Shown here: in pieces, positions 4,970 to 31,955 of the stretch
Position numbering within the stretch: position 1 is the first letter of the stretch
How the letters are laid out: each line of letters opens with the position of its first letter
Source: an uncultured Pelagibacteraceae bacterium
GTDB taxonomy: Bacteria; Pseudomonadota; Alphaproteobacteria; Pelagibacterales; AG-422-B15
Assembly: GCA_902571005.1 (NCBI GenBank)
Contig: CACGAG010000007.1
Location: 12,162-76,161, forward strand
Length of the DNA: 64,000 bases
Direction of reading: 5' to 3'
Translations under genes and position numbers: made by a program
Notes under the pieces: model-generated
Database searches by the model: none
Told to the model about the DNA's origin: nothing
Seen by the model: the letters and a program-made list of their open reading frames with translations, nothing else

Positions 4970-6211
4970 TTAATGAGCAACCGCTGCCGCTGCAGCTTCA
5001 TCAACTAAGGCTCCTGAGAAATGTCTTTCTAATGAAAAAGGAGCTGCAATATCGTTTGGCTCTCCTCTAAAAACTGTCTCAGCAAATACATGAGCTGACC
5101 CTGGAGTTGCTTTGAATCCCCCAGTTCCCCAACCGCAGTTAATAAATAAGTCTTTTACAGGCGTCTTGCCTATAATTGGACTTCTATCAGGAGTTACATC
5201 TACGATTCCTCCCCAACTGCGAAGCATTTTAAGTCTTGAGAATATTGGAAATAATTCAACTAGAGGAGCCATCATATGTTCGATCATGTCAAAAGATCCT
5301 CTCTGAGAATATGAATTGTAGGCATCAGAGCCTGCTCCAACCACTAGTTCACCTTTATCTGATTGACTTACATAAACATGAACGGAGTTTGACATAATGA
5401 CACAATCTAGAATTGGTTTAACAGGCTCGCTTACTAAAGCCTGTAGGGGTACAGAGTTTATTGGGAGAGAAAAACCTGCCATATTAGCTAATACTGAGGA
5501 GTGTCCAGCAGGTACGAGACCAACTTTATCAACTTTAACAGCACCTTTTGTTGTTTGTAATCCAACAACCTTGCCATTTGAAATATCTATTCCTTTAACT
5601 TCACAGTTTTGAATTATATCGACACCAAGATTTTCTGCCGCTCTTGCATACCCCCATGCTACAGCATCATGACGCGCCGTTCCCGCTCGCCTCTGAAGTA
5701 AAGCCCCTAAAACAGGATATCTGCCATTAACATTCATATGAGGTATTTTTTTTGCAACTTGATCCTGATTTAGAATTTCAGCGTCAATACCATTTAAATA
5801 ATTAGAATAGCCTCTCCTTGTGATTTCTTGCATGTCATGAACCGAGTGCGCTAAGTGAAATAAACCTCTTTGTGAAAACATTACATTAAAATTAAGCTCA
5901 CTAGAAAGACCTTCCCATAAATTAACAGCATGATTATAAAGAGCTGCACTTTCATCCCATAAGTAATTAGATCTTATTATAGTTGTGTTACGTCCAGTAT
6001 TACCTCCGCCAATCCATCCCTTTTCAAGAACAGCAATATTTTTAACACCAAATTCTTTTGCTAGGTAATAGGCAGTTCCTAATCCATGACCGCCGCCTCC
6101 AACTATTACTACATCATATTCAGGTTTAAGATCGGGACTGCTCCATGCTTTTTCCCAATTCTCATGATAAGAAAATGAATTCTTAACTAAATTGTATAGT
6201 GAGTATTTCAT
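4970..6211 (-). CDS. soxB: sarcosine oxidase beta subunit
   Basis: 413 aa with the FAD dinucleotide fold VVIVGGGGHGLGTAYYLA. It is the first gene of the soxBDAG order. Confidence 0.9.
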   Translation of the reverse strand: MKYSLYNLVKNSFSYHENWEKAWSSPDLKPEYDVVIVGGGGHGLGTAYYLAKEFGVKNIAVLEKGWIGGGNTGRNTTIIRSNYLWDESAALYNHAVNLWEGLSSELNFNVMFSQRGLFHLAHSVHDMQEITRRGYSNYLNGIDAEILNQDQVAKKIPHMNVNGRYPVLGALLQRRAGTARHDAVAWGYARAAENLGVDIIQNCEVKGIDISNGKVVGLQTTKGAVKVDKVGLVPAGHSSVLANMAGFSLPINSVPLQALVSEPVKPILDCVIMSNSVHVYVSQSDKGELVVGAGSDAYNSYSQRGSFDMIEHMMAPLVELFPIFSRLKMLRSWGGIVDVTPDRSPIIGKTPVKDLFINCGWGTGGFKATPGSAHVFAETVFRGEPNDIAAPFSLERHFSGALVDEAAAAAVAH

Positions 6212-7443
6212 AACTTAAACCTCTTTACAGAATACGGTGACAAATCTAAATCTGTGTTATTTGCACAAATTTGTTGTGCAACCAGTTTTCCTGATATGCC
6301 GCCTAATGACCACCCAATATGTTGATGACCAAAATTATAATAAATATAAGGGTTTTTTGGAGATTGTCCAATCACTGGAAGAGAGTCAGGCACCGATGGC
6401 CTGAACCCTACCCATGTTTTTTGAGGAAGGTCTGCTGAGGGAAAAACTTCTTTTAATGCCCGGTTTAAAAAGTTAAGAACTCTTTCATTTTTTGTTTCAT
6501 TTAACGCTCCAAATTCAACAATTCCACCCGTTCTTAGACCGTCAGACATAGGTGTAAAATATGTTCCCCGTTCTTGCCATGATATAGGTCTTTTTACAAT
6601 ATTCTTCAATTCTGGATTGACCAAATGGTAACCCCTTTCAGCTTCCAGTGGCACTTTGTCGCCTATATGTTTAAGCAGATCATTAGACCACACTCCAGAT
6701 GTAATCACGACTCTATCGTGCAGGGTCTCTCCTGAGTTAGTTTTAATATTTATTTGATTAGTTTCAGTTTTTTTGATGGATATAACTTTCTCTTTTTTGA
6801 ATTTTCCTCCTTTTTTAATAAACAGTTTCATTAATGCTTCGCTAACCTTGATCGGACTTTTTGCAAAATAACTACCTTCAAATAATGCCCCTTTGTAAAA
6901 GATATTATTAATATTAGGTTCAAGATCAGAAATATCATCTCGACTTAGAGTTGTTATTTTAACGCCTGTTTCTTCTCTTTTAGAAAAATCTCGTTTTGCA
7001 GCATTAAAAAATAGTTTTGTAGACCATCCATACATAATTGACTCTCTTGAAATATAATCTTCTGCATTTGCTTCGTTTAATAGATCTTCATAACCATCAT
7101 CCATATGTGACAGTAAAGTTGTTAAATGTTGAACAGTGTGGTTAACTTTTTCATTTCTGCAATTACTTAAGTATTTTATAATCCAAGGAAATGTTTCGTT
7201 TAATCGTTTTAGGCTAATGAATAAGGGGCTGTTTTTGTTTAATAATAGATATGGAAATAAATAAAAATAGGATGATGAATTTGTTGGTATATTTGCATAT
7301 TTTGCATAAGTTCCAGCATTGCCGTAGCTTGCTTGTGATCCAGGATCATTCATATCATACAAGGTCACATCTTGACCGTACTTCTTAAGCCAATTGGCTG
7401 AAGAAATGCCAACTATTCCTGCTCCTATTACTGCTATTTTCAT
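6208..7443 (-). CDS. FAD-dependent oxidoreductase (DadA/DAO family)
   Basis: N-terminal MKIAVIGAGIVGISSANWL Rossmann motif, about 410 aa. It has an ATGA overlap with soxB. Confidence 0.7.
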   Translation of the reverse strand: MKIAVIGAGIVGISSANWLKKYGQDVTLYDMNDPGSQASYGNAGTYAKYANIPTNSSSYFYLFPYLLLNKNSPLFISLKRLNETFPWIIKYLSNCRNEKVNHTVQHLTTLLSHMDDGYEDLLNEANAEDYISRESIMYGWSTKLFFNAAKRDFSKREETGVKITTLSRDDISDLEPNINNIFYKGALFEGSYFAKSPIKVSEALMKLFIKKGGKFKKEKVISIKKTETNQINIKTNSGETLHDRVVITSGVWSNDLLKHIGDKVPLEAERGYHLVNPELKNIVKRPISWQERGTYFTPMSDGLRTGGIVEFGALNETKNERVLNFLNRALKEVFPSADLPQKTWVGFRPSVPDSLPVIGQSPKNPYIYYNFGHQHIGWSLGGISGKLVAQQICANNTDLDLSPYSVKRFKL

Positions 7444-7448
7444 TTTAA

Positions 7449-8504
7449 CTATTGTGATTTCATCTCTAGAAGTCTGCTTATGGTTCTGTTGAATTTATCT
7501 TTCAAATGATATGCGCTACCAAGATCGCTTATTTCTTTTTCTGTGCTTAAATATAATTTGATTTTATTATCATAGAGAACATCAATTAAATTAATAAATC
7601 TTTCTTGAAGATTAGAATTTGTATTTCCAAAATTTGGAACATTTTCAATGATTAATCTATCAATTAATTTAATTAGCTCGAGGTAGTCTTCAGTGCCTCT
7701 ATTATCGCCACAAATTTCATTGAATTGAAAACGAGCTATTCTATTAGACAAATTCTTAATAATAAAATTTCTCTTCTTTACACTTATTACTTTATCCTCG
7801 ACTGCAACTTTATTTGAATGGATAGAAAAAATATCATTTATTTTAAGCTTGCTAACCGGTGAATTTGATAAAAAAAAGTTTTTTTCTTCTTTTAATGATC
7901 TTGTTCTATAGTCAATGTCTATTGATAGATGATGAATTAGAGAATTTTTTTTAATTAAATTAATAAATGGAATAAAAAGTTCTCTTTGCAGCCCTTCTTT
8001 GTATAAGTCTTCTGGGCAGGAATTAGAAGTTAATACAATTAAAATATTATTTTTAAAAAACTCCTCGAACAAATGTCCCAGAATCATAGCGTCAGCTATA
8101 TTTGTGACCTGAAATTCATCAAAGAATATGAGACTTGATTTCGATTTAATGCCTTTTACAAGTTTTGAAATTATAAAATCTCTTGAATTTTTTTCATTTC
8201 TGAGTTGGTGTAATTGATCATGTATATCAATCATAAACTCATGAAAATGGACTCTTTGTTTTTCTTTTAAATTTACGTCATCATAGAATAAATCCATAAT
8301 GAGAGTTTTTCCAATTCCCACTCCCCCGTATAAATAAAAGCATTTCTTTTGATTTAAATTATATCGAAATAGTTTTTTTATAAAATTTCTGCTCGAACCT
8401 GACAAAAATTTATCTAATTCAATAACTAGATCTTTTTGCTTAATATTATGTTCAATATGCTTATCTTTACAGAGCTGTTCGTAAACTTTTAAAGCTTCTG
8501 ACAC
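7449..8504 (-). CDS. zapE: AFG1/ZapE-family ATPase
   Basis: Walker A GGVGIGKT and Walker B LIFFDEFQV are present, at about 350 aa. The start is GTG, because the next Met lies after Walker A. Confidence 0.7.
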   Translation of the reverse strand: MSEALKVYEQLCKDKHIEHNIKQKDLVIELDKFLSGSSRNFIKKLFRYNLNQKKCFYLYGGVGIGKTLIMDLFYDDVNLKEKQRVHFHEFMIDIHDQLHQLRNEKNSRDFIISKLVKGIKSKSSLIFFDEFQVTNIADAMILGHLFEEFFKNNILIVLTSNSCPEDLYKEGLQRELFIPFINLIKKNSLIHHLSIDIDYRTRSLKEEKNFFLSNSPVSKLKINDIFSIHSNKVAVEDKVISVKKRNFIIKNLSNRIARFQFNEICGDNRGTEDYLELIKLIDRLIIENVPNFGNTNSNLQERFINLIDVLYDNKIKLYLSTEKEISDLGSAYHLKDKFNRTISRLLEMKSQ

Positions 8505-8516
8505 TTTCTCAAGTAG

Positions 8517-10952
8517 CTAAGATCTAAGTTTCTGATTATCAGGATCGTATGGACTTTCGGGTATTACCGTTACATCAAACATATCTCCCAAAATATCGAT
8601 CTTTAACTTTGTGCCTACATCTGAATGAGCTGGATTGACCATAGCTAAAGCGAGAGACTTATTAACTCGAAAGCCAAAATTTCCACCTGTAGCGCGACCA
8701 ATAACTTTGCCATCAGCATATATTGGATTATTGCCAAGTACATCAGCATCTTTGACGCCGTGAACTTCAAGAGTTACGAAGGAATTTTCAAAACCTTTTT
8801 CTCTCCACTGAACTAATGCATCTCTGCCTATGAATTGACCTTTGTTTGGGTGAATGAACCTGTCTATTCCTGACTCATATCCTGCGTATTCAATTGATAA
8901 TTCTGTACCAATTAGTTTGTAGGATTTCTCAATTCTCAAAGAGTCCATTGCTCTTATGCCAAAAGGCTTTAAACCCAGATCTTTTCCTGCATCCATTAAT
9001 GTATCGAATATATGATTTTGTACTTCAATTGGTGAGTGGATTTCCCATCCTAATTCGCCAACGAAATTTACTCTTATTGCAAGTGTTTCTGCAGCACCAA
9101 TTTTTACTTTTTTACCAGATAGCCATGGGAAACCCTCATTTGTGAAATCATCCTCAGATACCCTTTGAAGAAGTTCTCTCGACTTCGGACCAGCGACAAC
9201 TAATACTCCAATTTGATTTGTAATGTTTTCAAATTTTACACTTCTGTCATCAGGCATATGTTTTTTAACCCAATCATGGTCCAGCCGCTGCCAAGCTCCA
9301 GCAGAAACACAATAAAAACTGTCATGAGACTCTCTCATTATTGTAAATTCTGAGTGTACTCCTCCTTTAGAATTCAAAGCATGACAGAGATTTGTCCTTC
9401 CTATCTTTTTTGGTAATTTATTAGCAACTAAATTATCTAGGAATTCTTCCGCTCCTGGTCCGCTTATTCTGCATTTTGCAAACGCGGTCATATCTAAAAG
9501 ACCTACATTTTCTGTTACATTTTTACATTCATTTCCAATGTGCTCAAACCAAGCTGATCGCCTGAATGACCAATCGTCTTCTTGTGGGACTCCTTCAGGA
9601 GCAAACCAGTTTGCGCGCTCCCAACCAAACTTTTGACCAAAAACTGCACCTAAATTTTTCAGCCTATCATAACAAGGAGCTTGTCTTAATGGCCGGCCTG
9701 CGGGCCTTTCTTCATCAGGATAATGGATCGTGAAAACGTTAGCATAAGCCTCTTCATTTTTTTTGATTAAATATGATTTTGATGCGTAATCGCCAAACCT
9801 TCTGGGTTCAACCCCGAGCATATCAATGGTCGGTTCGCCATCAACAATCCATTCTGCGATCTGCCAACCTGCACCACCAGCAGCTGTAACACCAAACGAA
9901 TGACCATCATTTAAATATAAATTTTTTCTATCCCATGCTGGACCGATAATTGGGCTTCCATCTGGAGTATAGCAAATAGCACCATTATAAACTTTCTTAA
10001 TTCCTGCTTCTCCAAAAATAGGAACTCTGTGAATGGCATGCTCTATATGGGGGCCAAGTCTGTCTAAGTCTTCTTGGAATAATTCATACTCACAGTCTTT
10101 GCTAGGTCCATTGACATAGCAACATGGTGCACCATTTTCATATGGCCCAAGAATTAATCCACCAGCTTCCTCACGCATATACCATGCGCCGTCAGATCCT
10201 CTAAGTACACCCATTTCAGGAAGGCCTTCTTTTTGTCTTTCTAAAATTTTAGGATGGGCTTCAGTAACGATATATTGATGCTCAACAGGTATCACAGGGA
10301 TATCTAATCCAACCATTTCTCCAGTTTGCCTAACAAAATTTCCCGAGCATGAAACGACAATATCACATTTGATCTCGCCTTTATCAGTTGTAACAACCCA
10401 ACTATCATCTGGTAACTGTTCAAGTCCTATGACCGCTGTTTGTCTATAAATTTCAGCTCCAAGCGCTCTTGCTCCTTTTGCTAGAGCTTGCGTAAGATCA
10501 TTGGGTTGTATGTATCCATCCTCAGGATGCTGTATAGCACCCACTAAGCCCTCAGTTGAACAAAGCGGCCAGACTTTTTGAACTTCTTCGGGAGTTAAAA
10601 AATTGACTTTAACACCTATTGTTTCCGCAACACCTGCATATTGACGATACTCATCCATTCTATCCTGGTTTTCAGCAAGTCGAATATTACTTACTTGTCT
10701 AAAGCCAACATCTTGACCAGTTTCTTTTTCAAGTTCCTGATAAAATTTAACTGAGTATTTATGGATTTGACCAACAGAGTAACTCATGTTGAATAAAGGC
10801 ATCAAACCTGCAGCGTGCCATGTGGAACCTGATGTAAGTTCTTTACGTTCGCACAAAACTACGTCAGACCATCCTTTTTTTGCAAGGTGGTAAAGCGTAC
10901 TAACTCCAACTACACCGCCACCGATGACGACAACTTTAGCTTTATTTTTCAT
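8517..10952 (-). CDS. dimethylglycine dehydrogenase-type enzyme (FAD oxidoreductase fused to a GcvT folate-binding domain)
   Basis: VVVIGGGVVGVSTLYHLAKKG at the N-terminus plus a C-terminal aminomethyltransferase domain, about 810 aa. The track start at 10973 is a TTG. The ATG at 10952 (MKNKAKVVVIGGG) is preferred. Confidence 0.8.
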   Translation of the reverse strand: MKNKAKVVVIGGGVVGVSTLYHLAKKGWSDVVLCERKELTSGSTWHAAGLMPLFNMSYSVGQIHKYSVKFYQELEKETGQDVGFRQVSNIRLAENQDRMDEYRQYAGVAETIGVKVNFLTPEEVQKVWPLCSTEGLVGAIQHPEDGYIQPNDLTQALAKGARALGAEIYRQTAVIGLEQLPDDSWVVTTDKGEIKCDIVVSCSGNFVRQTGEMVGLDIPVIPVEHQYIVTEAHPKILERQKEGLPEMGVLRGSDGAWYMREEAGGLILGPYENGAPCCYVNGPSKDCEYELFQEDLDRLGPHIEHAIHRVPIFGEAGIKKVYNGAICYTPDGSPIIGPAWDRKNLYLNDGHSFGVTAAGGAGWQIAEWIVDGEPTIDMLGVEPRRFGDYASKSYLIKKNEEAYANVFTIHYPDEERPAGRPLRQAPCYDRLKNLGAVFGQKFGWERANWFAPEGVPQEDDWSFRRSAWFEHIGNECKNVTENVGLLDMTAFAKCRISGPGAEEFLDNLVANKLPKKIGRTNLCHALNSKGGVHSEFTIMRESHDSFYCVSAGAWQRLDHDWVKKHMPDDRSVKFENITNQIGVLVVAGPKSRELLQRVSEDDFTNEGFPWLSGKKVKIGAAETLAIRVNFVGELGWEIHSPIEVQNHIFDTLMDAGKDLGLKPFGIRAMDSLRIEKSYKLIGTELSIEYAGYESGIDRFIHPNKGQFIGRDALVQWREKGFENSFVTLEVHGVKDADVLGNNPIYADGKVIGRATGGNFGFRVNKSLALAMVNPAHSDVGTKLKIDILGDMFDVTVIPESPYDPDNQKLRS

Positions 10953-10957
10953 ATGAA

Positions 10958-11638
10958 TTATGGTCCGGCCCAATCAACAGCACAATATTCGGCACTTCCA
11001 CCTGTGAAATCCCAATTACGGCCGTGATCTCTAATCCTACTTCTTTTTGATCCTTTGCAAACAATTATTTCTGGCGCAACCCAATATTTTAAGTTTGATA
11101 CTTTTACTACTTCGCCTCTCTCTTTTCCTGGCTCATGTTCAATTCGACCATCTAAGATTTCTGGAATTGTAAACGACCAACCATCGTCGGTTTCTTTATA
11201 TGATATAGAACATCGTTTTACGCCAAGGAAGTTTGCAATCATATGTCTAAACCAACCTGTTTGCCCACCCGCTTGGCCTGAGAAAATAACTGCGAGCGCA
11301 TCAGCTGCATCATCAGATGCTTTTTCGTCAATATATAATCCTGCTGTCCAACCGCCTGAACCTAAAGGGCCAGGAACTTCTAAAAGAATAGCAACATTTA
11401 AACCACTTAAATTCATAATTCCTTTAGACTCTCTTTTGATAGGGTTAAATCCAGACCACTTTTCTTCTGCGTATCCTTCTTCGATATTAATTCCCCACCA
11501 TGAAAAGCATTTACCATTTGGTGAATTTGGAACCGCTCTTCCCAGGGACATCGGACAATTGCAAAATACATCGCAGTTACAATTCAGCAAAAAATTTCCT
11601 TTTATTTCCCAATGTAAGTTTAGTGGATTTACTGTCAT
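10958..11638 (-). CDS. DUF1326-family Cys-cluster protein
   Basis: The N-terminal LLNCNCDVFCNCPMS cluster is characteristic of DUF1326, as recalled from memory. It is paired with DUF2182, as is usual. Confidence 0.6.
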   Translation of the reverse strand: MTVNPLNLHWEIKGNFLLNCNCDVFCNCPMSLGRAVPNSPNGKCFSWWGINIEEGYAEEKWSGFNPIKRESKGIMNLSGLNVAILLEVPGPLGSGGWTAGLYIDEKASDDAADALAVIFSGQAGGQTGWFRHMIANFLGVKRCSISYKETDDGWSFTIPEILDGRIEHEPGKERGEVVKVSNLKYWVAPEIIVCKGSKRSRIRDHGRNWDFTGGSAEYCAVDWAGP

Positions 11639-11642
11639 ATAG

Positions 11643-12524
11643 TTAAATAAATATTAAATACGCCCCCCAACCTACAAGAAGAATGCCCAGAAATCTAGAG
11701 CTAAGTTTCTCGTAAGGCAGCATTTTTTCAGCCAATACAATTACTGTTATTGCGACAACCCAAAGTAAATTCATAACTCCATTTACAAAAAGCAGAAGCA
11801 TAAGAACCCAGCAGCACCCTAAGCAAAATAAACCATGCTTTAGACCCACATAGGCAACATTTCCGTATCCTTTAATAGGACCTGACATTAGAAACGATAA
11901 GGGGTTTCTACATTTCTCAAGACATGTGTCTTTCAAACTTGTAAATTGAAATGCACCTGCTCCAACGAGAAATAATCCAGCAAGAATATTATTTTGTAAT
12001 GTTCCCATCATATTGACAACCCCGTTATTGTGAAAAATATATTGAAGAGTGCATGCAATAAGTGAAAAAATTGTCCAAATTAAAATATAAGTGAATGAAA
12101 TCACTATCATCTCAATAATAATATTCGATGATATCTGCATATTCGATCTCATCATTCTAAAAATATTTAAAAAGATAAATGTAGATGGAAGCATCATCGC
12201 AAACATCATGACGGTCCACATTACGAACATCACGATAAAATCATTAATTGTCCACTTTCCTGTCATTGGCATCATAAGAAAATTGATTGATAAGATTTTT
12301 TCATTCATGTTCATTGAATTCATAGTCATTTCTGTATCAGACATCGAGCTCATTGACATTTCATTCTCTGAAGCGGTTTCCATTGACATTGTCATTGGAT
12401 TTTTATTTTGCATCATTGAGTCCATTGGATTAGCTGCCATGAGGAATAAATAGTACCAAGCTAAAGCAATCAGCAAGGTGAGAAAAAAAAGTGTAGTGAT
12501 ATATTCAATTTTAAATGTTTTCAT
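11643..12524 (-). CDS. DUF2182-family predicted metal-binding membrane protein with a Met-rich insert
   Basis: Polytopic membrane protein carrying GLFCLGCCWVLM (family-typical CxGCCW). A Met-rich loop follows TM1. Confidence 0.6.
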   Translation of the reverse strand: MKTFKIEYITTLFFLTLLIALAWYYLFLMAANPMDSMMQNKNPMTMSMETASENEMSMSSMSDTEMTMNSMNMNEKILSINFLMMPMTGKWTINDFIVMFVMWTVMMFAMMLPSTFIFLNIFRMMRSNMQISSNIIIEMIVISFTYILIWTIFSLIACTLQYIFHNNGVVNMMGTLQNNILAGLFLVGAGAFQFTSLKDTCLEKCRNPLSFLMSGPIKGYGNVAYVGLKHGLFCLGCCWVLMLLLFVNGVMNLLWVVAITVIVLAEKMLPYEKLSSRFLGILLVGWGAYLIFI

Positions 12525-12979
12525 TAATGTTCTGTATGGTCATCTAGACTTTTTTGAGTTTCAACCTCAAAAAGTACTTTGATCTCACCTGCATTTTCAA
12601 ATATTAAAAACCCTTCTAAACTTATTCCATCAGTTAATTCAATGCTAAAATTTGAAAACATTATATGGTGCATGCCGGGTTTGAGCGATTTAGCTTTTTG
12701 TGGAGGGATTTCAATGAAATCAACTTTACTCATTGTAACTATTCCATTCTCTATACTTGAATAATGTAACTCAGTATCTGCAAAGTCAGTAATAACTTTA
12801 ATTAAACGATCTGTCTCGAAACCCATGTTTACTATTTTCATATATCCAGCTGCAGGGCCTGATGAAATTACAAACTTTATGTGTGGGTGATTTATATTAA
12901 TTTGATCTTTTTGAAATTGGTGAGCAGCTCCAATTTTTGTAAAAACTAAAAACAAAACTATTATTAGTGCCTTATACAA
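12524..12979 (-). CDS. periplasmic copper chaperone PCu(A)C (DUF461)
   Basis: Signal peptide present. I counted an M-x21-H-x-M motif (MSKVDF...KPGMH-HIM). The start codon is TTG and is uncertain. Confidence 0.75.
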   Translation of the reverse strand: MYKALIIVLFLVFTKIGAAHQFQKDQININHPHIKFVISSGPAAGYMKIVNMGFETDRLIKVITDFADTELHYSSIENGIVTMSKVDFIEIPPQKAKSLKPGMHHIMFSNFSIELTDGISLEGFLIFENAGEIKVLFEVETQKSLDDHTEH

Positions 12980-12982
12980 TCC

Positions 12983-13228
12983 TTAATCTCTCTCTGTCGA
13001 AAACATACAGACATCGTTAACACAAGTTAAAACGCATAATAAGTTTTTATCTTTGTTATGATAAGATGCCCATAATTCAGTCTTTTCATGTTTTAAAAGA
13101 AGCTCAACATTAGCATCACAATTTTTTTTTGATGCTTGTTCAGATGCCAATTCTCTATATTTATTTGTTTCAATTATTTCGGAACAAGAAAATAAAACAA
13201 AAAAAATAAATATTGATATTTTATACAT
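12983..13228 (-). CDS. small Cys-rich putative lipoprotein
   Basis: Lipobox-like LFSC at residues 12-15 and a C-terminal CVLTCVNDVC. It sits between PCuAC and SCO1 with 2-3 nt gaps. Confidence 0.45.
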   Translation of the reverse strand: MYKISIFIFFVLFSCSEIIETNKYRELASEQASKKNCDANVELLLKHEKTELWASYHNKDKNLLCVLTCVNDVCMFSTERD

Positions 13229-13230
13229 TG

Positions 13231-13881
13231 TTATAGATTTTTTAAATCTTCAACCATTTGTTCAATATTAGAACCAAACGGAAGTATGCTTATTAATACA
13301 TCATCATCATCAAAAATATAATAGAAAGCAGTATGTTGAACCATGTAGTTTTTTTCTTTATCACTTATTTCATCAGATTGTTCAGACGTACCTAAATAAT
13401 TTTGATGTTCTGAATTTGTTGCCGGCTCTACATGTACAAAAAAATCTTTCCATATTGGCATAAGATTTTCATGCGTACCCGTTAAACCAATTAAATTATT
13501 GCTAAAGTTGCTGAGAAATTCTTTTAACCGATCAGGGTTATCCCTAGCAGGATCAACTGTTACAAAGAAAAATTTTATATTTTCTATTGAATGATTTTCT
13601 CTATTTAATTGATCTATGGCATTGCTCATAAGATTCGCACTAATTGGACAAATATCTGGGCAATGAGTAAAGCCAAAAAAGAATACTTTACTATATCCTC
13701 TGTAAGTTCTTTCGCTTACATCAACTCCAAAATGGTCAACTGCGGTAAATTTTAAATCAATGTTGTTTGATACTTCTGAAGTATTTTCTTTAAATAATTC
13801 AGAAACTGCCCAACCGGCGACGACTGCTAATATAATTATTGAGAGGAATAAAAGTTGATTAACTTTTCTTCTTGAAATCAT
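13231..13881 (-). CDS. SCO1/SenC copper chaperone (thioredoxin fold)
   Basis: N-terminal TM anchor, the FGFTHCPDICP CxxxC motif, and the downstream conserved His (MVQHTAFYY). Confidence 0.85.
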   Translation of the reverse strand: MISRRKVNQLLFLSIIILAVVAGWAVSELFKENTSEVSNNIDLKFTAVDHFGVDVSERTYRGYSKVFFFGFTHCPDICPISANLMSNAIDQLNRENHSIENIKFFFVTVDPARDNPDRLKEFLSNFSNNLIGLTGTHENLMPIWKDFFVHVEPATNSEHQNYLGTSEQSDEISDKEKNYMVQHTAFYYIFDDDDVLISILPFGSNIEQMVEDLKNL

Positions 13882-15017
13882 TATTCCATTTTTTCGAGTC
13901 TAGAACTAAATGGTAAAGGTACAACTTCTACTTCTCGTTTCTCTCCATCATGATCAATCTGATATACTTCCTCTGAATTAATTAAATCAATATCGATGAA
14001 CCCTAAAGCAATATTGCATCCAAAGTTTGGACTATAAATACAGCTGGTTACAAATCCTTTTTTTTCAGAGTTATTGTCAAATAATGGTATTCTTGCCATA
14101 TTATAACCAATTTTCTTTCCTGAAATTTTAAAACCAGTGAATTGTTTTTTAATGCCCTCTTCTCTTATTTTTAAGAGAGCATCTTTTCCTACAAAGTCCG
14201 CTTCTTGATCAAGATCATAAAATTTTGGTAAGTTTAGTTCTAAAGGGTTTTCAGCTAATGAGGTATCTCCTTGGTGGGAAATCATACCAGCTTCAATTCT
14301 ATCTATTTGATTAGGACAACTTGGTACAATTTTAAACTCTTTTCCTGTTTCCATTAATGCATTCCATAGAGCCGGACCGTCTACTTCTCTTGTTATATAA
14401 ATTTCGTATCCAAACTGATTACTCCAACCGCTGCGTGCAATTATGATATCTAATCCGAATAAGTTAGTTTCGATAAATTGATAATATTTTAATCCCATAA
14501 TAACTGGATCATCATTTGTAGCTTTTCTCATGAGTTCTTTTGCGCGCGGGCCTTGCAATGAAAGTGGACAAGCTTCAGGCTCTGAAATCTTAACATTATA
14601 CTTACCAGATAAAGCGACGCCTTTGCACCATAGTATTGCATCAGAATCTGCAATGCTCAGCCAAAACTTTTTTTCATTAAACTTTAAAATTAAAGGATCA
14701 TTTATGATACCACCATTTTCATCTGTCATAAACGCGTAACGACAAAAACCATCTTTGAAAGTTGATAGATTTCTTGGCGTCATGTACTGAACAAATTTAG
14801 CGGCGTCCTCTCCAATAATTTCAATTTGTCTCTCTGCTGCCACATCCCATAATGTTACATCGTTTATTAATGATTGATATTCCTGCTCAGGAGTCGTGTA
14901 GCCAACAGGCATCGTCATACGGTTATAAGTTGTAAAATTGGTAGCACCATATTTTAGTGTCTCTTCAAAGAAAGGTGATTTTCTTATCCTTGGGGTGTAT
15001 ATGATACCTTTTGACAT
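13881..15017 (-). CDS. GcvT-family aminomethyltransferase, DmdA-like demethylase
   Basis: 378 aa. The RIRKSPFFE...TLWDVAAERQIEIIGEDAAKF pattern is typical of the DmdA/GcvT family. A strong SD (AAGGAG) lies 6 nt upstream of the ATG. Confidence 0.75.
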   Translation of the reverse strand: MSKGIIYTPRIRKSPFFEETLKYGATNFTTYNRMTMPVGYTTPEQEYQSLINDVTLWDVAAERQIEIIGEDAAKFVQYMTPRNLSTFKDGFCRYAFMTDENGGIINDPLILKFNEKKFWLSIADSDAILWCKGVALSGKYNVKISEPEACPLSLQGPRAKELMRKATNDDPVIMGLKYYQFIETNLFGLDIIIARSGWSNQFGYEIYITREVDGPALWNALMETGKEFKIVPSCPNQIDRIEAGMISHQGDTSLAENPLELNLPKFYDLDQEADFVGKDALLKIREEGIKKQFTGFKISGKKIGYNMARIPLFDNNSEKKGFVTSCIYSPNFGCNIALGFIDIDLINSEEVYQIDHDGEKREVEVVPLPFSSRLEKME

Positions 15018-15125
15018 TCTGTTCTCCTTAATGATCAGACCTTATAGACCATAAAGTGATAAAAAGTAAATCCTTTTCCTAAGTTTCTACTTACTAATTG
15101 AAACTTAAAATGCTAAAAAATAATC

Positions 15126-16049
15126 ATGAGCAAAAGATATGAAAATTTAATGAAACGTATTCATGCTGGAGAAAATATTCTTCTTGATGGGGCTACTGGT
15201 TCAGAACTTGAAAACCGTGGTATTAAAATGGATAATTCTTGGTGTGGCACAGCCTCCTTAGAAAGCGATACATTGAAGCAAATACACAAAGATTATATTG
15301 AGGCTGGATCAAGTATTATAACTACAAATACTTATGCAACAAATCGAATGATCTTAGAAACTGCGGGAGTAGATAATCAATTCAAAGAAATAAATCTAAG
15401 TGCGATAAATGCAGCTACAGAAGCCAGGGAGGAATGTGGTAGAGATGATGTACTTATAGCTGGGTCCTTATCTCATCAAATACCGTATGAGGATGCTTTT
15501 GAAACGCAAGAAGAAAGAGAGAAATTTAAGAAAAAACTCACCCCCGAATATTTTCAAAAATCTTTTGATGAGCTCGCTTTTTTTCTAGCCGATAATGGGT
15601 GTGATTTTATTCTACTCGAGTTAATGTATCGACCAGATCGAATTGAAATAATCTTTGACTCAGCAAGTAAGGCTGGATTGCCTGTGTGGGCTGGATTCTC
15701 ATCTAGAAATAAAGACGGGTTGATAGCCCTTACCACAGACTATGACTATAGTTTTAAAAAAATGATTAGTAATGTGAAACATCATAAATTGGATGCTGTA
15801 GGAATAATGCATTGTGAAATTAATGTAATAGAACAAAGTATTAAAGAACTTAAAGAAGTATATGACCTTCCTGTTATGGCGTATCCAGAAGTAGCGGTAT
15901 TTAATTTTCCACACTACGACATGAGCAATGTAATTTCTCCTGATGATTATTTAATTGAAGCAAAAAAGTGGAAGGATGCTGGAGCGCAAATTATAGGTGG
16001 ATGTTGTGGTACAACAGTTGAACACATTAAAGTACTCAATCAATTATAG
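15126..16049 (+). CDS. bhmt: homocysteine S-methyltransferase family (betaine-homocysteine methyltransferase-like)
   Basis: C-terminal GGCCGTTVEHI zinc-Cys pair and the overall Hcy S-methyltransferase layout. The betaine assignment is contextual. Confidence 0.65.
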   Translation: MSKRYENLMKRIHAGENILLDGATGSELENRGIKMDNSWCGTASLESDTLKQIHKDYIEAGSSIITTNTYATNRMILETAGVDNQFKEINLSAINAATEAREECGRDDVLIAGSLSHQIPYEDAFETQEEREKFKKKLTPEYFQKSFDELAFFLADNGCDFILLELMYRPDRIEIIFDSASKAGLPVWAGFSSRNKDGLIALTTDYDYSFKKMISNVKHHKLDAVGIMHCEINVIEQSIKELKEVYDLPVMAYPEVAVFNFPHYDMSNVISPDDYLIEAKKWKDAGAQIIGGCCGTTVEHIKVLNQL

Positions 16050-16961
16050 TTAGCCCGTATCTTCTTCGGTCTTTGATGCAAATATTATTTCTGTTAGCCC
16101 AGCAAATATTATGAAAGAGCTGCCTAATATTTCTCGCCACCCAATAAGCTCATCTGTTAATACCGCAGCACTGAAAGTACCCACAACTATTTCAAAAAGT
16201 ATAATTATAGAAAATATGCCTGCACCAATTCTACTTGGTGCACCTAAGATCACTATATTTGTCGGTATATGAAATAAAATTGCAATTAAAATTAGCCACG
16301 GCATCATTGCAACCCATGACTCTATTGATGGAGCATCACCTAGGTAGTCGCTCAAGAAATATGATTGTATTAATGTAAATAAGCCACCATAAAAAAAGAA
16401 TGAAAATAAGATAGGATATATTCCCTCTGGCTTTTTTATCTCCATTCTAACTGCTGATGCGGCAATAAGAATTCCGCCTAATAAAGCAATCCAATCACCA
16501 GAATTTTGCGGTAAGGGTATCACGCCTTCTTGTCCAAAAACTATCCAAACGCCAGATAGTGCAAGAGCTAATGTTATGTATCTATAAAAACGTGGAATTT
16601 GTCTAAGAAATACAATTTCAAAAATAGTTGTCCAAACTGGGGTTATATAAAAGAGTATTAAAGCTCTAACTACATCTGTCAGTAAAAAACTATTAGCGTA
16701 GCAAGCAATACCTCCTCCAAACAAAAGTCCAATTAGAGGATACTCTAGGCCAAAAGACTGACCTTTATAGAGCCTCCAAAGTGATATTGGAAGCAGCATT
16801 GCAAAAGGTATAACCATTTGAGAAATCGTTGCCCATCCGCCCGTTAAACCACCAGCCTCTAACGCTCTTTGAGGGATCCAGAATAAACCCCACATACCCG
16901 CAGCGATTAATAACGCAAAGCTAATTGTATAATAGTAAGGATGTCTTGATGAGGTGATCAT
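16050..16961 (-). CDS. EamA/DMT-family transporter
   Basis: About 10 TM helices and about 300 aa, with a two-repeat hydrophobic pattern. Confidence 0.7.
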   Translation of the reverse strand: MITSSRHPYYYTISFALLIAAGMWGLFWIPQRALEAGGLTGGWATISQMVIPFAMLLPISLWRLYKGQSFGLEYPLIGLLFGGGIACYANSFLLTDVVRALILFYITPVWTTIFEIVFLRQIPRFYRYITLALALSGVWIVFGQEGVIPLPQNSGDWIALLGGILIAASAVRMEIKKPEGIYPILFSFFFYGGLFTLIQSYFLSDYLGDAPSIESWVAMMPWLILIAILFHIPTNIVILGAPSRIGAGIFSIIILFEIVVGTFSAAVLTDELIGWREILGSSFIIFAGLTEIIFASKTEEDTG

Positions 16962-16972
16962 AAAAGTTAATT

Positions 16973-17007
16973 AAAAAAAAGGCCTTGCACAAAAGTAACA
17001 AGGCCTT
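16973..17007 (-). terminator. rho-independent terminator after proX
   Basis: On the minus-strand RNA, the stem AAGGCCUUG/CAAGGCCUU (16979-16987 / 16999-17007) has an 11-nt loop and is followed by 8 U (A-run at 16973-16980). Confidence 0.8.
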
Positions 17008-17032
17008 AATTTTCTGATTTAGCTATTTAGAC

Positions 17033-18037
17033 TTACGGAAGCCAAGCTTTCCATTCGTCTGTACTGTTTTTCCATTCAGCAACAGCTTCTTCGACAGATA
17101 ATCCGTCGTCACCAACTCTTACAAGCATTTTTGCTTGATCCGTGTTAGAGAAAGCCATTTTTTTGAAGAATGCAACTGCTTCAGCGTTCTCAGGTTTAGA
17201 CATAACTTCAGGATTCATATAATTCATCGTGTAGTCTTTATCCCAACCAGTAGCAGGCCATGCTGCAGTTCCACAATCTTGCCAGTTATTAGCTTCAGTA
17301 AAACTATCACAGTATTTGTATGCTGGTAGTTTTACACCAACCATTTCATTCTTACCGAAGAAAAAGTGTGGTTCCCAAAGATACAGAAGGAATGCTTCAC
17401 CTCTATCATAAGCTCCTTGAGCTTCCGCTAGGGCTGCAACCTCAGTACCTAGTTCTGATGCTTCAAAATCAATTCCTAAAAGATCTAATCTTTTTTGGTC
17501 ATGACAGTTCCAACCAGCAACTGGACATCCAATCAATCTACCTTTTGAACCTGTTTCAGGTGTCGCAAATTGATCTTTATATTTATTTAAATCTGACCAG
17601 TCTTTAAAATCTGGGTTAGCGTCAACAAAGTATTTTGGAACATAGTAATCTGACATTCCAATGATACCACTTGTGTACGCATCAACAGATCCATCACCAG
17701 AATACTCTTTTACAACTTCTCCGTCATAAACAAGATTCATGTTGACCATTACATCGTCAGCCTCTGCATAACTTGGCCAACTTTCACATGCGAAGTCAAT
17801 ATCGCCAGCAGCAATAGCTTCCCATAGACCTGTTCCTGAAGCGAATTCTATTCTATCAACTCTGTAGCCTAGCTCTTCTTCAAGGATAGCAACTGCAACC
17901 TGACATGTTAATTCCCCACCAGTCCAGTCAGCAACAGCAGCTGTTAAACGCTTAGCGTTGGCAGTACCTGCCGAAAGAACTAAAAAAGAAGACAAAATCA
18001 GGGCAGCAAAAGTTTTTGCAAATAATGAATTTTTCAT
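17033..18037 (-). CDS. proX: glycine betaine/quaternary-amine ABC transporter substrate-binding protein
   Basis: Signal peptide, OpuAC-type sequence, and visibly higher GC and codon bias. SD AAGGGGA. Confidence 0.85.
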   Translation of the reverse strand: MKNSLFAKTFAALILSSFLVLSAGTANAKRLTAAVADWTGGELTCQVAVAILEEELGYRVDRIEFASGTGLWEAIAAGDIDFACESWPSYAEADDVMVNMNLVYDGEVVKEYSGDGSVDAYTSGIIGMSDYYVPKYFVDANPDFKDWSDLNKYKDQFATPETGSKGRLIGCPVAGWNCHDQKRLDLLGIDFEASELGTEVAALAEAQGAYDRGEAFLLYLWEPHFFFGKNEMVGVKLPAYKYCDSFTEANNWQDCGTAAWPATGWDKDYTMNYMNPEVMSKPENAEAVAFFKKMAFSNTDQAKMLVRVGDDGLSVEEAVAEWKNSTDEWKAWLP

Positions 18038-18158
18038 TAATTTCCCCTTTTTATTAATTAATTAATAAATAATTCTAGACCAAAAAAGATGAATAAGTAA
18101 ACCGCTTTATCAACATTTTTTGAAGAAAAGTATCAGGAAATATGTATATAAATTAGAT

Positions 18159-20279
18159 CTATAAACCTAGGGCATCTCTTTGCTTTTTTGTCCATGCAAG
18201 ACTGATACGGTCAATTATCATGGCTAATAAACAAATTCCTATGCCAGCAGCAAGAGCTCTACCAGTATCTGATCGAGCTAAGCCATTAAATACCTCAAGA
18301 CCTAGCCCTTTACCACCAATGAGAGGTGTGACAATCTGCATCGCAAAAGCCATCATGACTGTTTGATTGAAACCCATAACCAAACTAGGAACTGCTAGAG
18401 GAAATTTTATCTTATTGAGAGTCTGAATCGTAGTGCCTCCAAATGACTTTGATACTTCTGAATATGTGGAAGAAACTTGTGACAGGCCCAATACAGTTAA
18501 ACGTATTATTGGAGGTATGGAGTATATAATTGTTGCAAGTAATGCAGAAAATGCCCCACCACCAAAAAACATTAAAACTGGAACAAGGTAACAAAAATAT
18601 GGCAATGTTTGCATTGCATCTAATATTACCTCGTTGATATTTTGAAATCTCTTACTGTAAGATGCTAAGATACCTATTGGCACACCAATTACAAAACATA
18701 AAAGAACTGAGATAAGAACTGATGAAAGAGTAATCATTGCTTCAGTCCAAATATTGCAAGCGCCGATGAATGCTAGAAGGATGGCAGTAATAATCGCAAA
18801 TCTAATTCCAACAGATTTCCAGCTGATTAGAACCAATGCGCCAATTGTAAACCAATATGGTAAATATGTGAGATAAAAATCAAATGGTCTTAGTAGATAA
18901 ATAACAACAGTTGATCTGATTGTTTTGGTTATTGAAATAAACGTATCATTTACAACCAATGACTTTACACCAGCAGAAATTTCTTCTCTTATTGACAGAT
19001 TCCATGCTTCAGGAAATGTTCCTATTGCAGCAACGTTTGCATCATAATAAACGATGCCAATCAATATTAATAATCCAGAGAAAAAGAAATAATGAGCATT
19101 TATAAATTGTGCAATCGCTGAGCCGTAATCCTTATTAAATAAAGAAATTACTGAATTTAAAATGAAAGAAAATATTCGAATAACGCTTGAGAATACAAAT
19201 GCAAATGCAAAATGAATTAATTGTAGAGGTTTTTCAACCTGTCTAGCAATGGGATAAATATCCCATGTTTGCGGTAAAAGATAAAATTTTTGACTATCGG
19301 ATGGCAGGGTAACTGTCTCCCGACTAGCGGCTTTACCAAATCTATCGAACATGATTGCCATTAAAAGAACGCAAATACCTCCTTCCAAAGCAGCTCCGAC
19401 TTCTAGTTTTTTTATCGATACCCAAATGTCTGAACCTAGACCTTGAGCCCCAATAAACGTTGCTAAAACAACCAATGCCAATGCCATCATTATTGTTTGG
19501 TTAACGCCCATCATGATGCTTGGAAGAGCTAATGGAATTTGTACTTTAAATAAAATTTGGCTCTTACTCGAACCAAAAGCTGTTGCTGTTTCTACTGTTT
19601 CATTGGGGACCTGACGTATACCTAAGTTTGTCAGACGAATAATAGGAGGCATTGAATAAATCATTGTTGCAAGAATTGCAGGTGCGCCTCCGATTCCAAA
19701 GAAAAACATTGCAGGGATAAGATAAACAAATGCAGGCATCACTTGCATTATATCGAGAGCTGGTTTCATATTTCTCTCAAAACGATCACTTAATGCACAG
19801 AAAATACCAAGTATTACTCCAACAGCTACAGACAAGAATACTGATAGACCCATAAGAGCAAGAGTTTCCATAGCAGAGTCCCAAAGCCCAACCATTCCCC
19901 AATACATGGTGCCAAAAAGAACCAGAAAACCTAATTTAATTCCACCGAATGCAAGTGATGGAATAAGCAATAGCGCCGCTATAAATACCCAAGATGAATC
20001 CAGTAAAAAATCCTCGAGCATCCAATAAAGGTCTTTTACATAACCAGCAACCATCCTTGTATAAACTTTAATATTATCTTTTAAAAAATCTTCACCAGCA
20101 TTGACCCAAGCTGTAAAAGTAAAAGCGTCAGTTATAAAGACAGGAAATTCAGAAACATCTTCTCCTTGAAATGCAAGCCAGATTGAAGCTAGAATTGCAG
20201 CAAAAATTAGCCCAGGAATGATAAGACTCTGAGTACTACTTTTAGAAGATAAAAGAGATGTATCTTGGGTTAATGCCAT
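18159..20279 (-). CDS. proW: glycine betaine ABC transporter permease, tandem-fused (two ProW-like halves)
   Basis: 706 aa. Both halves carry the same core (N half ...PAFVYLIPAMFFFGIGGAPAILATMIYSMPPIIRLTNLG..., C half ...PYFCYLVPVLMFFGGGAFSALLATIIYSIPPIIRLTVLG...). Confidence 0.85.
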   Translation of the reverse strand: MALTQDTSLLSSKSSTQSLIIPGLIFAAILASIWLAFQGEDVSEFPVFITDAFTFTAWVNAGEDFLKDNIKVYTRMVAGYVKDLYWMLEDFLLDSSWVFIAALLLIPSLAFGGIKLGFLVLFGTMYWGMVGLWDSAMETLALMGLSVFLSVAVGVILGIFCALSDRFERNMKPALDIMQVMPAFVYLIPAMFFFGIGGAPAILATMIYSMPPIIRLTNLGIRQVPNETVETATAFGSSKSQILFKVQIPLALPSIMMGVNQTIMMALALVVLATFIGAQGLGSDIWVSIKKLEVGAALEGGICVLLMAIMFDRFGKAASRETVTLPSDSQKFYLLPQTWDIYPIARQVEKPLQLIHFAFAFVFSSVIRIFSFILNSVISLFNKDYGSAIAQFINAHYFFFSGLLILIGIVYYDANVAAIGTFPEAWNLSIREEISAGVKSLVVNDTFISITKTIRSTVVIYLLRPFDFYLTYLPYWFTIGALVLISWKSVGIRFAIITAILLAFIGACNIWTEAMITLSSVLISVLLCFVIGVPIGILASYSKRFQNINEVILDAMQTLPYFCYLVPVLMFFGGGAFSALLATIIYSIPPIIRLTVLGLSQVSSTYSEVSKSFGGTTIQTLNKIKFPLAVPSLVMGFNQTVMMAFAMQIVTPLIGGKGLGLEVFNGLARSDTGRALAAGIGICLLAMIIDRISLAWTKKQRDALGL

Positions 20280-20365
20280 ATAAAATAGTATTCCTCAAGG
20301 TTAAATAAATTATTCAAAAATCCTCAACATAGTATAACATTCAGCAGATAAAGCACTCAAAAATA

Positions 20366-21406
20366 ATGGAAAAAAATGACAAAATAGTATGCACAAATAT
20401 ATGGAAAGTATTTGGGCCGAATGAAAAAAATGTTCTTACAAATTTAGACAAAAATCTTTCAAGAAGTGAAGTGCAAGAAAAAACTGGACATGTGGTTGCA
20501 GTTAAAGATGTAAGTTTCTCAGTTCAAAAAGGTGAAACGTTTGTTGTAATGGGTTTATCAGGTAGTGGTAAATCTACATTAGTAAGATGTTTATCAAGAC
20601 TAATTGAGCCAACAGCGGGTGAGGTAAAAATTGACAATCAGGATGTAACACAGATGAGTAATAAAGATTTAACAGATCTGAGGCGTAATAGAATGAGTAT
20701 GGTATTTCAGCACTTTGGTCTTTTCCCTCATCGAAGAGTGATAGAAAATATTGGCTATGGACTTGAAATAAGGGGAGTAAAGAAAAAAGATCGATTAGAT
20801 AAGTCAATGGAAACACTTAAACTTGTAGGACTAGAAGGTTGGGATCAACATTACCCTCGCGAATTGTCAGGTGGAATGCAACAAAGAGTTGGACTAGCTA
20901 GAGCTCTAGCAGTTGATCCAGAGATTCTAATTTTTGACGAACCTTTCTCAGCACTGGATCCATTGATAAGAAGGGAAATGCAAGACGAGTTAATTAGCAT
21001 TCAAAAAATGGTTCAAAAAACAATGGTATTTATTACGCATGATTTTTCTGAAGCTATTAAAATGGGTGATCATATTGCGATAATGAAAGATGGAGAAATA
21101 TCACAAGTTGGTACACCAGAGGAAATTGTTGCAAATCCTGTGGATCAATATGTAAAAGACTTCACTGAAGATGTTCCCAAATACAAAGTTTTAAGTGCGG
21201 GTAAATGCGCAAGAAAAGAATGCTGCGAAGATACAAAAACCCTGTTCGCCCAGGGCAATGAGTGTATTAAAAGTGACGTTAAAATCGATACTTTAATTAA
21301 TCAGATAGCTGACACTGACAAAAAATATCCTGTAATCGATGCAGTTTCAGGAGAACTAATTGGTGAAATTGATCGGTCAATAGTCTTAAAATCAATGACA
21401 TCTTAA
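20366..21406 (+). CDS. proV: glycine betaine/proline ABC transporter ATPase
   Basis: Walker A GLSGSGKST and signature LSGGMQQRVGLARAL, with a C-terminal CBS-like tail. Confidence 0.9.
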   Translation: MEKNDKIVCTNIWKVFGPNEKNVLTNLDKNLSRSEVQEKTGHVVAVKDVSFSVQKGETFVVMGLSGSGKSTLVRCLSRLIEPTAGEVKIDNQDVTQMSNKDLTDLRRNRMSMVFQHFGLFPHRRVIENIGYGLEIRGVKKKDRLDKSMETLKLVGLEGWDQHYPRELSGGMQQRVGLARALAVDPEILIFDEPFSALDPLIRREMQDELISIQKMVQKTMVFITHDFSEAIKMGDHIAIMKDGEISQVGTPEEIVANPVDQYVKDFTEDVPKYKVLSAGKCARKECCEDTKTLFAQGNECIKSDVKIDTLINQIADTDKKYPVIDAVSGELIGEIDRSIVLKSMTS

Positions 21407-21426
21407 TTAATTTGAATAAATAAACC

Positions 21427-22617: not shown

Positions 22618-22629
22618 AAAACCTCGTAG

Positions 22630-25210: not shown

Positions 25211-25222
25211 AAAGGATAGATA

Positions 25223-29230: not shown

Positions 29231-29305
29231 TATCAGTATTAATATTAGATGGAATATAATTTAATTTGATCTTTAACATATATAAAAAAAACCTTATGTT
29301 AAGGT

Positions 29306-31932: not shown

Positions 31933-31955
31933 AATGCTGTAAATGAGTGTACCGC

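Follow-up and report, generated by a model that had tools for sequence, protein, structure and literature searches.

A DUF2182-DUF1326 (DmdE/DmdF-like) gene pair joined to copper-chaperone genes beside a DmdA-family gene in Pelagibacteraceae: a candidate copper-handling module

We analysed a 64-kb stretch of DNA from an uncultured Pelagibacteraceae (SAR11) bacterium, hereafter the window (GC content 34%), and in it a string of five minus-strand genes in which a DUF2182-DUF1326 pair stands together with genes for copper chaperones. In the direction of transcription, the string comprises a 216-aa SCO1/SenC protein, a membrane-anchored periplasmic copper chaperone of thioredoxin fold (13231..13881; PF02630, E 9e-35, 120 bits); a lineage-restricted Cys-rich lipoprotein of 81 aa, recognised by its lipobox and without a Pfam or NCBIfam match (12983..13228); a periplasmic Cu(I) chaperone of the PCuAC family, 151 aa long, with a TTG start and a signal peptide (12524..12979; PF04314, E 2e-18, 66.9 bits); a polytopic membrane protein of 293 aa that belongs to PF09948, formerly DUF2182, and is similar to PpoB2 and DmdE (11643..12524; E 3e-54); and a soluble, DmdF-like DUF1326 protein of 226 aa (10958..11638; PF07040, E 6e-36). 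All five are present in the open reading frame (ORF) list of the window where a first-pass annotation, made from the letters of the sequence, had placed them, and its guesses at the families SCO1, PCuAC, DUF2182 and DUF1326 were confirmed by Pfam hidden Markov models (HMMs). The tight packing that it described was also borne out: from SCO1 to DUF1326 the junctions measure +2, +3, -1 and +4 nt, the negative value being a 1-nt overlap.

The string continues on both sides. It is headed by the gene of a DmdA-like GcvT-family methyltransferase of 378 aa (13881..15017, minus strand; Pfam GCV_T and GCV_T_C), which overlaps the SCO1 gene by 1 nt, so that its stop codon lies over the SCO1 start. The next gene after DUF1326 encodes a dimethylglycine dehydrogenase (DMGDH)-like FAD- and folate-dependent demethylating enzyme (8517..10952, minus strand; Pfam DAO, FAO_M, GCV_T and GCV_T_C). 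Its start is more likely ATG at 10952 than TTG at 10973, which leaves a gap of 5 nt to the DUF1326 stop. From the DmdA-like gene the string runs on into DMGDH and sarcosine-oxidase genes, and no internal terminators were found in it above chance, the counts of promoter and terminator scans being no higher than the shuffled expectation.

The SCO1 protein is characterized by an N-terminal transmembrane segment (residues 5-31), the motif C74-PDI-C78 and a distal histidine, H183, all kept in 42 homologues; the anchor, the CxxxC and His ligands and the HMM match together place it in its family. Every homologue with at least 42% identity whose context was examined sits directly behind a DmdA-like gene in this same slot, and the two genes are coupled by a 1- or 4-nt overlap in every SAR11 architecture.

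In the small lipoprotein, the lipobox L-[FL]-[SA]-C15-S-E follows a hydrophobic N-terminal region, and the motif C65-VLT-C69-VNDV-C74 stands 7 residues short of the C-terminus. Across 29 SAR11 sequences, Cys15, C37, C65, C69, C74 and the C-terminal STERD do not vary, and with these invariant cysteines the ORF is a genuine gene. An exhaustive search through 1.84 billion representatives returned about eight relatives, all of them close. The PCuAC protein has a hydrophobic N-terminus ending in AA|HQ as its signal peptide, contains no cysteines and carries the complete motif H72-x10-M83-x21-H105-x-M107, of which M83, H105 and M107 are kept in 35 homologues; all features that define PCuAC membership are thus present. 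SCO1 and PCuAC are the CuA/CuB chaperones of cytochrome oxidase. The fold of SCO1 is that of thioredoxin, and thiol-disulfide oxidoreductase activity is known from certain members of the SCO family.

The DUF2182 protein matches PF09948, now named "PpoB2, copper chaperone" in Pfam, over positions 1-187 of the 188 in the model (184.1 bits; cutoff 28.7). Met, His and Cys residues are conserved in this polytopic membrane protein. G236-C237-C238-W239 is invariant across phyla; the invariant residues of the protein are M102, W103, M106, M107, M110, M111, P113, the pair C201xxxC205, C234, C237 and C238, and H230 is nearly so (at least 90%). Its AlphaFold2 (AF2) model has about seven helices and a disordered Met-rich segment at residues 35-84; over residues 30-100 the Met content is 24%. 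A conserved first helix is followed by the acidic, Met-rich disordered loop (~32-92) and then by the MWxxMMxxMMxP helix; the CxxxC lies in a positively charged loop, and H230, C234, C237 and C238 cluster in the middle of a helix. By applying the positive-inside rule to the AF2 helices, we infer a periplasmic position of the Met-rich loop and a cytoplasmic one of the CxxxC. No solved fold relative of the model was found, and it matched neither CcdA nor DsbD. The protein is 31% identical to the DmdE-type protein of a Roseobacter (Marinovum).

The DUF1326 protein aligns with 175 of the 177 positions of its Pfam model (124.6 bits against a cutoff of 25), and contains no hydrophobic segment and no export signal. 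Its cysteine cluster, C20-N-C22-DVF-C26-N-C28, is complemented by C44 downstream, and these five residues are invariant in 17 diverse sequences from at least six phyla. The arrangement CxCx3CxC...C is reminiscent of the Cu(I)-thiolate motifs that fungal copper regulators carry. Copies 97-100% identical to it occur in many Pelagibacteraceae single-cell genomes, and the DmdF-type protein of Marinovum shares 41% of its residues, including all five cysteines. The AF2 model (pLDDT 81) shows a weak likeness to an acetoacetate-decarboxylase-like beta-cone, and a peroxidase-like fold was not detected in it. The motifs reported at first pass, namely CxxxC in SCO1, M-x21-H-x-M in PCuAC, GCCW and a Met-rich loop in DUF2182 and CNCDVFCNC in DUF1326, were accordingly all found in place; in the lipoprotein, both the lipobox and CVLTCVNDVC stood, and the position given for the latter, at the very end of the protein, had to be corrected.

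With so many conserved thiols, the string could also be understood as a thiol-disulfide redox relay, in which DUF1326 and DUF2182 would pass reducing equivalents, in a CcdA- or DsbD-like manner, to SCO1 and the lipoprotein, and would in this way shield periplasmic thiols from oxidants or thiol adducts of demethylation. The thioredoxin fold and the oxidoreductase activity of some SCO proteins suit such a role, as do the conserved Cys pairs of DUF2182, one of them within a transmembrane helix, and the four invariant cysteines of the lipoprotein. An oxidative-stress phenotype has furthermore been reported for DmdF (PMC12992908). Yet the relay of electrons would account neither for the Met-rich loop of DUF2182 nor for its ladder of invariant Met, and PCuAC offers a canonical Cu(I) site of Met and His without any cysteine. 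The missing fold match to CcdA and DsbD, as well as the genetics of PpoB2, which favour copper (PMC2855505), likewise argue against it, and we regard the redox relay as quite improbable.

Gene order within SAR11 was assessed in 44 species-representative loci of Pelagibacteraceae, two of them on cut contigs. The five-gene form, with SCO1, lipoprotein, PCuAC, DUF2182 and DUF1326, is present in 32 loci, a four-gene form without PCuAC in six, and a form reduced to SCO1 and DUF1326 in four. Because the string recurs in 32 of 44 species-representative genomes, the five-gene arrangement is not due to chance. The slot between the DmdA-like and DMGDH-like genes is the same in all 42 representative genomes with spanning contigs, and in every SAR11 locus the DMGDH-like gene follows directly after DUF1326. 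Polar metagenomes are rich in the two-gene form; one such protein was found there on 332 contigs. In addition, on a 316-kb contig of JGI metagenome 3300005239 (positions 6700-8240) the slot is occupied by SCO1, the small lipoprotein and, behind them, truncated DUF genes, the remnants being residues 1-186 of DUF2182 and residues 53-226 of DUF1326, from which the Cys cluster is gone. Either the copy is decaying or the assembly is in error, and the case is consistent with a series of gene loss from five to four to two genes.

This regularity bears on the explanation offered in the first-pass annotation, that the locus provides general cytoplasmic copper import and lies among flavin and folate enzymes by accident, as an outcome of genome compaction. 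Tight gene packing is indeed typical of SAR11, and no need for copper is known from the flanking enzymes. The linkage to the DmdA family turned out, however, to be the most conserved feature of the locus: it is found in every SAR11 architecture, recurs independently in Acidobacteriota, other Proteobacteria and Roseobacters, and has genetic support (PMC12992908). Since it is seen in every SAR11 variant, in other phyla and in the published Roseobacter arrangement, the embedding is not accidental, and an import route placed there by compaction is hardly credible.

To follow the pair outside SAR11, we inspected 36 loci from Entotheonella, Myxococcota, Acidobacteriota, Chloroflexota and others. In 32 of them DUF1326 occurs together with DUF2182, which lies immediately upstream in 26; in the window the two are separated by 4 nt, and the adjacency is also kept on actinobacterial and betaproteobacterial plasmids. 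DmdA-like neighbours were observed in six of the 36 loci (268-386 bits on the DmdA model), a BHMT-like S-methyltransferase, of the same family as the gene at 15126..16049 of the window, in five, AMP-ligases in five, BCCT betaine-type transporters in three, and haem-dependent N-demethylase subunits in three. The window has similar neighbours in its BHMT-like gene and its OpuAC ABC transporter. Linkage of the pair to the DmdA family recurs in Acidobacteriota, other Proteobacteria and Roseobacters, the plasmids of the latter showing the order GntR-DUF2182-DUF1326-(ligase)-DmdA-AcuI. In more distant pairs, on Streptomyces, Nocardioides and Polaromonas plasmids, the pairing is kept and no copper, dimethylsulfoniopropionate (DMSP) or betaine genes lie nearby; the pair is therefore a self-contained module that has other contexts as well. 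The genes of these distant plasmid pairs occur in either order, and in Polaromonas they are divergent.

As an illustration of the Roseobacter arrangement, Marinovum algicola plasmid pMaD9 (locus 6209-13599) carries on one strand DUF2182, DUF1326, an acyl-CoA ligase, DmdA, an alcohol dehydrogenase and SBP56. After SBP56, which is of the MtoX family, a 218-aa hypothetical protein without a Pfam family is encoded. In the GenBank record of this plasmid, both DUF genes are already labelled "involved in DMSP breakdown".

DUF2182-DUF1326 is thus an ancient two-gene unit, which in different phyla is repeatedly accompanied by genes of the DmdA family, by BHMT-like genes and by betaine/DMSP-transporter genes. 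Only in Pelagibacteraceae has the pair been joined by SCO1, PCuAC and the small lipoprotein. SCO1-like or PCuAC-like ORFs were sought beside the pair with SAR11-trained profiles and then with a diverse SCO profile built from 113 sequences and a relaxed PCuAC threshold, and none was found in any of the 36 loci, so that the enrichment of the pair with copper chaperones expected across genomes fails outside SAR11.

The last result speaks for a housekeeping explanation, according to which SCO1 and PCuAC are assembly factors of cytochrome c oxidase that came to lie beside the pair by coincidence, the pair itself being copper-free, for example a peroxidase that uses a different cofactor, with its membrane partner. 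Besides the 0/36 count, it can invoke the fact that some SAR11 lineages can do without PCuAC, DUF2182 and the lipoprotein, and that streamlined genomes seldom keep paralogues. DmdF was, furthermore, reported as a peroxidase and copper was left unmentioned (PMC12992908). Coincidence does not sit well, on the other hand, with the translational coupling of SCO1 to the DmdA-like gene in every architecture, or with the position of its closest relatives of examined context, which all occupy this slot and in no case a cox context. PF09948 is itself a copper-transfer family, the conserved residues of the pair are soft-metal ligands, and in Marinovum a gene of the Cu-dependent MtoX family belongs to the same string as dmdEF. 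On balance, we consider the housekeeping explanation rather unlikely.

The protein that heads the string had been described as GcvT-like, which holds at the level of the family; it is specifically DmdA-like. Its best NCBIfam match is DmdA (NF009133), at 346.8 bits against a cutoff of 410, whereas true DmdAs reach 681 (Marinovum), 680 (Antarctobacter) and 615 bits (P. ubique 3tfh, residues 8-352). Among solved structures, P. ubique DmdA 3tfh comes closest to it, with 272 bits compared to 128 for GcvT. It is 39% identical to the P. ubique enzyme, and true DmdAs are 45-46% identical to one another. In a small neighbour-joining tree without bootstrap support, it clusters with DmdA-like proteins linked to the DUF pair, as a sister to Roseobacter and P. 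ubique DmdA. Canonical DmdA identity of the 378-aa protein is ruled out by the bit-score calibration and the tree position. Judged by its sequence, it is a sister-clade paralogue of DmdA and a candidate folate demethylase.

The window contains another protein of this kind. A 447-aa GCV_T-family protein encoded within 29856-31932 also has DmdA as its best NCBIfam match, at 238 bits far below the cutoff; its gene overlaps a short MTHFR-like gene, and the two make up another uncharacterised pair for folate-dependent demethylation. In genomes of the two-gene architecture, the 447-aa GCV_T gene, its MTHFR-like partner and FTHFS stand directly upstream of the DmdA-like gene. In the window, these genes (29856-33790) are about 15 kb away from it, and the intervening block 15126-29800 resembles an insertion or rearrangement. 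The block carries BHMT-like, EamA and OpuAC ABC transporter genes, an iron-containing alcohol dehydrogenase, an amidase, a malonyl-CoA-synthase-like ligase, an MR/MLE enzyme and MsrA.

Both families of the pair were thought at first pass to have no assigned function, which is outdated. PpoB2 (COG5486/PF09948), a Marinomonas mediterranea protein that delivers copper specifically to tyrosinase, has been tied to the metal since 2007 (PMC2855505), and in 2026 Fu et al. (EMBO J) named DUF2182 DmdE and DUF1326 DmdF (PMC12992908). In Roseobacters, dmdE and dmdF belong to a DmdR-regulated operon with dmdA-acuI; Ruegeria lacuscaerulensis mutants of either gene do not grow on DMSP, and deletion of dmdA partly rescues the dmdE mutant (PMC12992908). 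Purified R. lacuscaerulensis DmdF consumed H2O2 in an assay with 10 mg/ml protein and 1.76 M H2O2, and an oxidative-stress phenotype was described (PMC12992908). The assay result would be compatible with any redox-active bound metal. The same paper states that dmdE/dmdF are absent from SAR11, on the basis of a survey of NCBI representative genomes at ≥30% identity and ≥70% coverage (PMC12992908). Judging from the homology of its products, the SAR11 locus contradicts this absence, which resembles a sampling limit because the window proteins, at 41% and 31% identity, pass the 30% threshold of the survey.

Copper could also be handled in the outward or protective sense, with Cu(I) being sequestered or exported, or copper centres repaired; methanethiol, a strong copper ligand and an oxidase inhibitor that demethylation sets free, would then make chaperones necessary to keep the oxidase metallated. 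The established role of SCO1 and PCuAC at the oxidase CuA/CuB sites agrees with this. Methanethiol's toxicity has been put down to inhibition of cytochrome c oxidase (PMC10525899), and the partial rescue of the dmdE mutant by deletion of dmdA implies a toxic product of the pathway. However, the DmdA-like protein is not a canonical DmdA, so that its methanethiol output is unproven, no energy-coupling domain for export is present, and the direction of transport is unreadable from sequence. We hold protective copper handling to be improbable.

The reading that we prefer, with somewhat less than even confidence, is that the locus represents a SAR11-specific, copper-chaperone-augmented DmdE/DmdF accessory module that travels with DmdA-family genes for methyl-onium demethylation. 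Inward transfer of copper is favoured because PF09948 is the PpoB2 copper-transfer family, because a ladder of Met, His and Cys, kept across phyla, runs through DUF2182, and because DUF1326 combines five invariant cysteines with the lack of an export signal. On the periplasmic side, copper would be captured and reduced by SCO1 and PCuAC, perhaps together with the four-Cys lipoprotein, and the chaperones would hand Cu(I) to the acidic Met-rich loop of DUF2182. The ion could then descend along the MWxxMMxxMM helix to the mid-membrane residues H230, C234, C237 and C238 and on to the CxxxC at the cytoplasmic face, from which DUF1326, in the cytoplasm, would receive it at its CxCx3CxC...C site. Most speculatively, metal-loaded DUF1326 might act as a redox-active thiolate protein that clears a toxic by-product of demethylation: peroxide, which Roseobacter DmdF is reported to consume, or else a thiol, for instance methanethiol. 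The order of periplasm, membrane and cytoplasm proposed in the first-pass annotation thus remains the best mechanistic reading; the copper step in it is one that we infer from sequence, and the link to the chaperones holds for SAR11 only.

Several observations weigh against this module. The link to the chaperones, being confined to one lineage, may go back to one rearrangement that was then inherited. No cuproenzyme client (mtoX, oxidase or tyrosinase) was found in the 64-kb window. The two-gene form sets a periplasmic chaperone beside an apparently cytoplasmic DUF1326 with no membrane conduit at the locus, and the Roseobacter DmdE-type protein is devoid of the Met-rich loop. The Cys motif of DUF1326 by itself fits Cu(I), Zn or Fe-S alike, and the fold of the protein resembles no known metallochaperone, its likeness to enzyme-like beta-cones amounting to TM-scores of 0.34-0.43 only. 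Finally, DmdF was presented as a peroxidase in a paper that mentions copper nowhere (PMC12992908).

A bolder extension of the copper module, which seems to us unlikely, would make DmdE/DmdF an unrecognised system for Cu(I) uptake and insertion, and DUF1326 a copper-thiolate enzyme that detoxifies peroxide or methanethiol arising from sulfonium and ammonium demethylation by the DmdA family. Methyl-sulfur turnover in part of SAR11 would then depend on copper, by way of an operon into which SCO1, PCuAC and the lineage-specific Cys-rich lipoprotein have been drawn, and the DmdA-like paralogue would act on another substrate.

The locus is of broader interest since the pair, or else DUF1326, is present in no fewer than 44 species-level genomes of Pelagibacteraceae, and since it physically ties the DmdE/DmdF pair to established copper chaperones. 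This linkage and the overlooked PpoB2 precedent lead to the hypothesis that the function of DmdE/DmdF depends on copper. The analysis also brings to light a sister clade of DmdA-like proteins whose linkage to the pair extends across phylum boundaries. Should copper really be involved, the supply of trace copper could affect the turnover of methyl-sulfur and methyl-amine compounds by SAR11; if uptake and insertion are as outlined, methyl-sulfur turnover would be copper-dependent in a part of the ocean's most abundant bacterial group.

In the wider surroundings, an AFG1/ZapE-like ATPase (7449-8504) lies between the DMGDH-like gene and a DAO-family oxidoreductase. It is kept in that slot in every SAR11 locus examined, as an unexplained member of the string for methyl-group oxidation. 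On the other side, the divergent neighbour of the DmdA-like gene encodes a BHMT-like homocysteine S-methyltransferase (15126..16049, plus strand; PF02574, E 6e-50), and is followed by an EamA exporter-type protein and an OpuAC-type (betaine/DMSP-type) ABC transporter (16050..21406; Pfam EamA, OpuAC, BPD_transp_1 and ABC_tran), a block that reads as a context of substrate supply. Between the two divergent genes, at 15080-15107, a perfect 8-bp inverted repeat, TAAGTTTC-N12-GAAACTTA, was observed, for which about 0.06 chance matches are expected per window; exact copies occur only in six near-identical loci. It is the sole inverted repeat upstream of the string and differs from the Roseobacter dmd box, which was not found there. 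An Rfam search for regulatory RNAs upstream of the string gave no match, and a GntR-family regulator of the DmdR type was absent among the annotated neighbours at 1-39 kb of the window.

Comparison with known systems places the locus closest to Roseobacter DmdE/DmdF. The same two Pfam families are adjacent, membrane protein first and DUF1326 second, in one operon with a DmdA-family gene, and the five cysteines of DUF1326 and the transmembrane Cys/His motifs of DUF2182 are shared. In contrast to Roseobacters, the window has no adjacent GntR-type DmdR, acuI or dinB and no dmd box, its partner is the DmdA-like paralogue instead of canonical DmdA, and SAR11 adds SCO1, PCuAC, the lipoprotein and the predicted periplasmic Met-rich loop of DUF2182.

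PpoB2, as judged by the family HMM, is similar in being a polytopic membrane protein of the same Pfam family, in which residues fit to bind metal are conserved, and in working with one specific soluble partner whose gene is adjacent. In extracts of ppoB2 mutants, added copper reportedly restored tyrosinase activity. The partner in SAR11 is DUF1326 and not the tyrosinase PpoB1, and neither a tyrosinase nor another recognised cuproenzyme was found in the window.

The CcoA-CopZ-CcoI-SenC-PccA route of Rhodobacter capsulatus to cbb3 oxidase likewise combines a Met/His membrane importer, a cytoplasmic carrier and the periplasmic chaperones SCO1 (SenC) and PCuAC (PccA), and MxxxM-type transmembrane motifs for Cu(I) are described there (PMC5829832, PMC8475189, PMC7558416). 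Unlike its counterparts, DUF2182 is not a member of the major facilitator superfamily and DUF1326 is not a ferredoxin-fold CopZ. The string in the window has no P1B-ATPase or oxidase genes nearby, its partner being an operon for methyl-group demethylation.

MtoX is a Cu-dependent methanethiol oxidase encoded in an mtoX-SCO1/senC-mauG operon (Eyice et al. 2017, PMC5739008). SBP56 (PF05694) and MauG-type proteins were not found among the window ORFs scanned, which sets the window apart from that cluster. What the two have in common is a SCO1-family chaperone inside an operon of the organosulfur-demethylation branch, and in Marinovum pMaD9 an SBP56/MtoX-family gene stands directly behind the dmdEF-dmdA string. 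By analogy, the Rhodobacter copper route, the association of SCO1 with Cu-dependent MtoX and the inhibition of the oxidase by methanethiol would all fit a copper relay of the kind proposed for SAR11.

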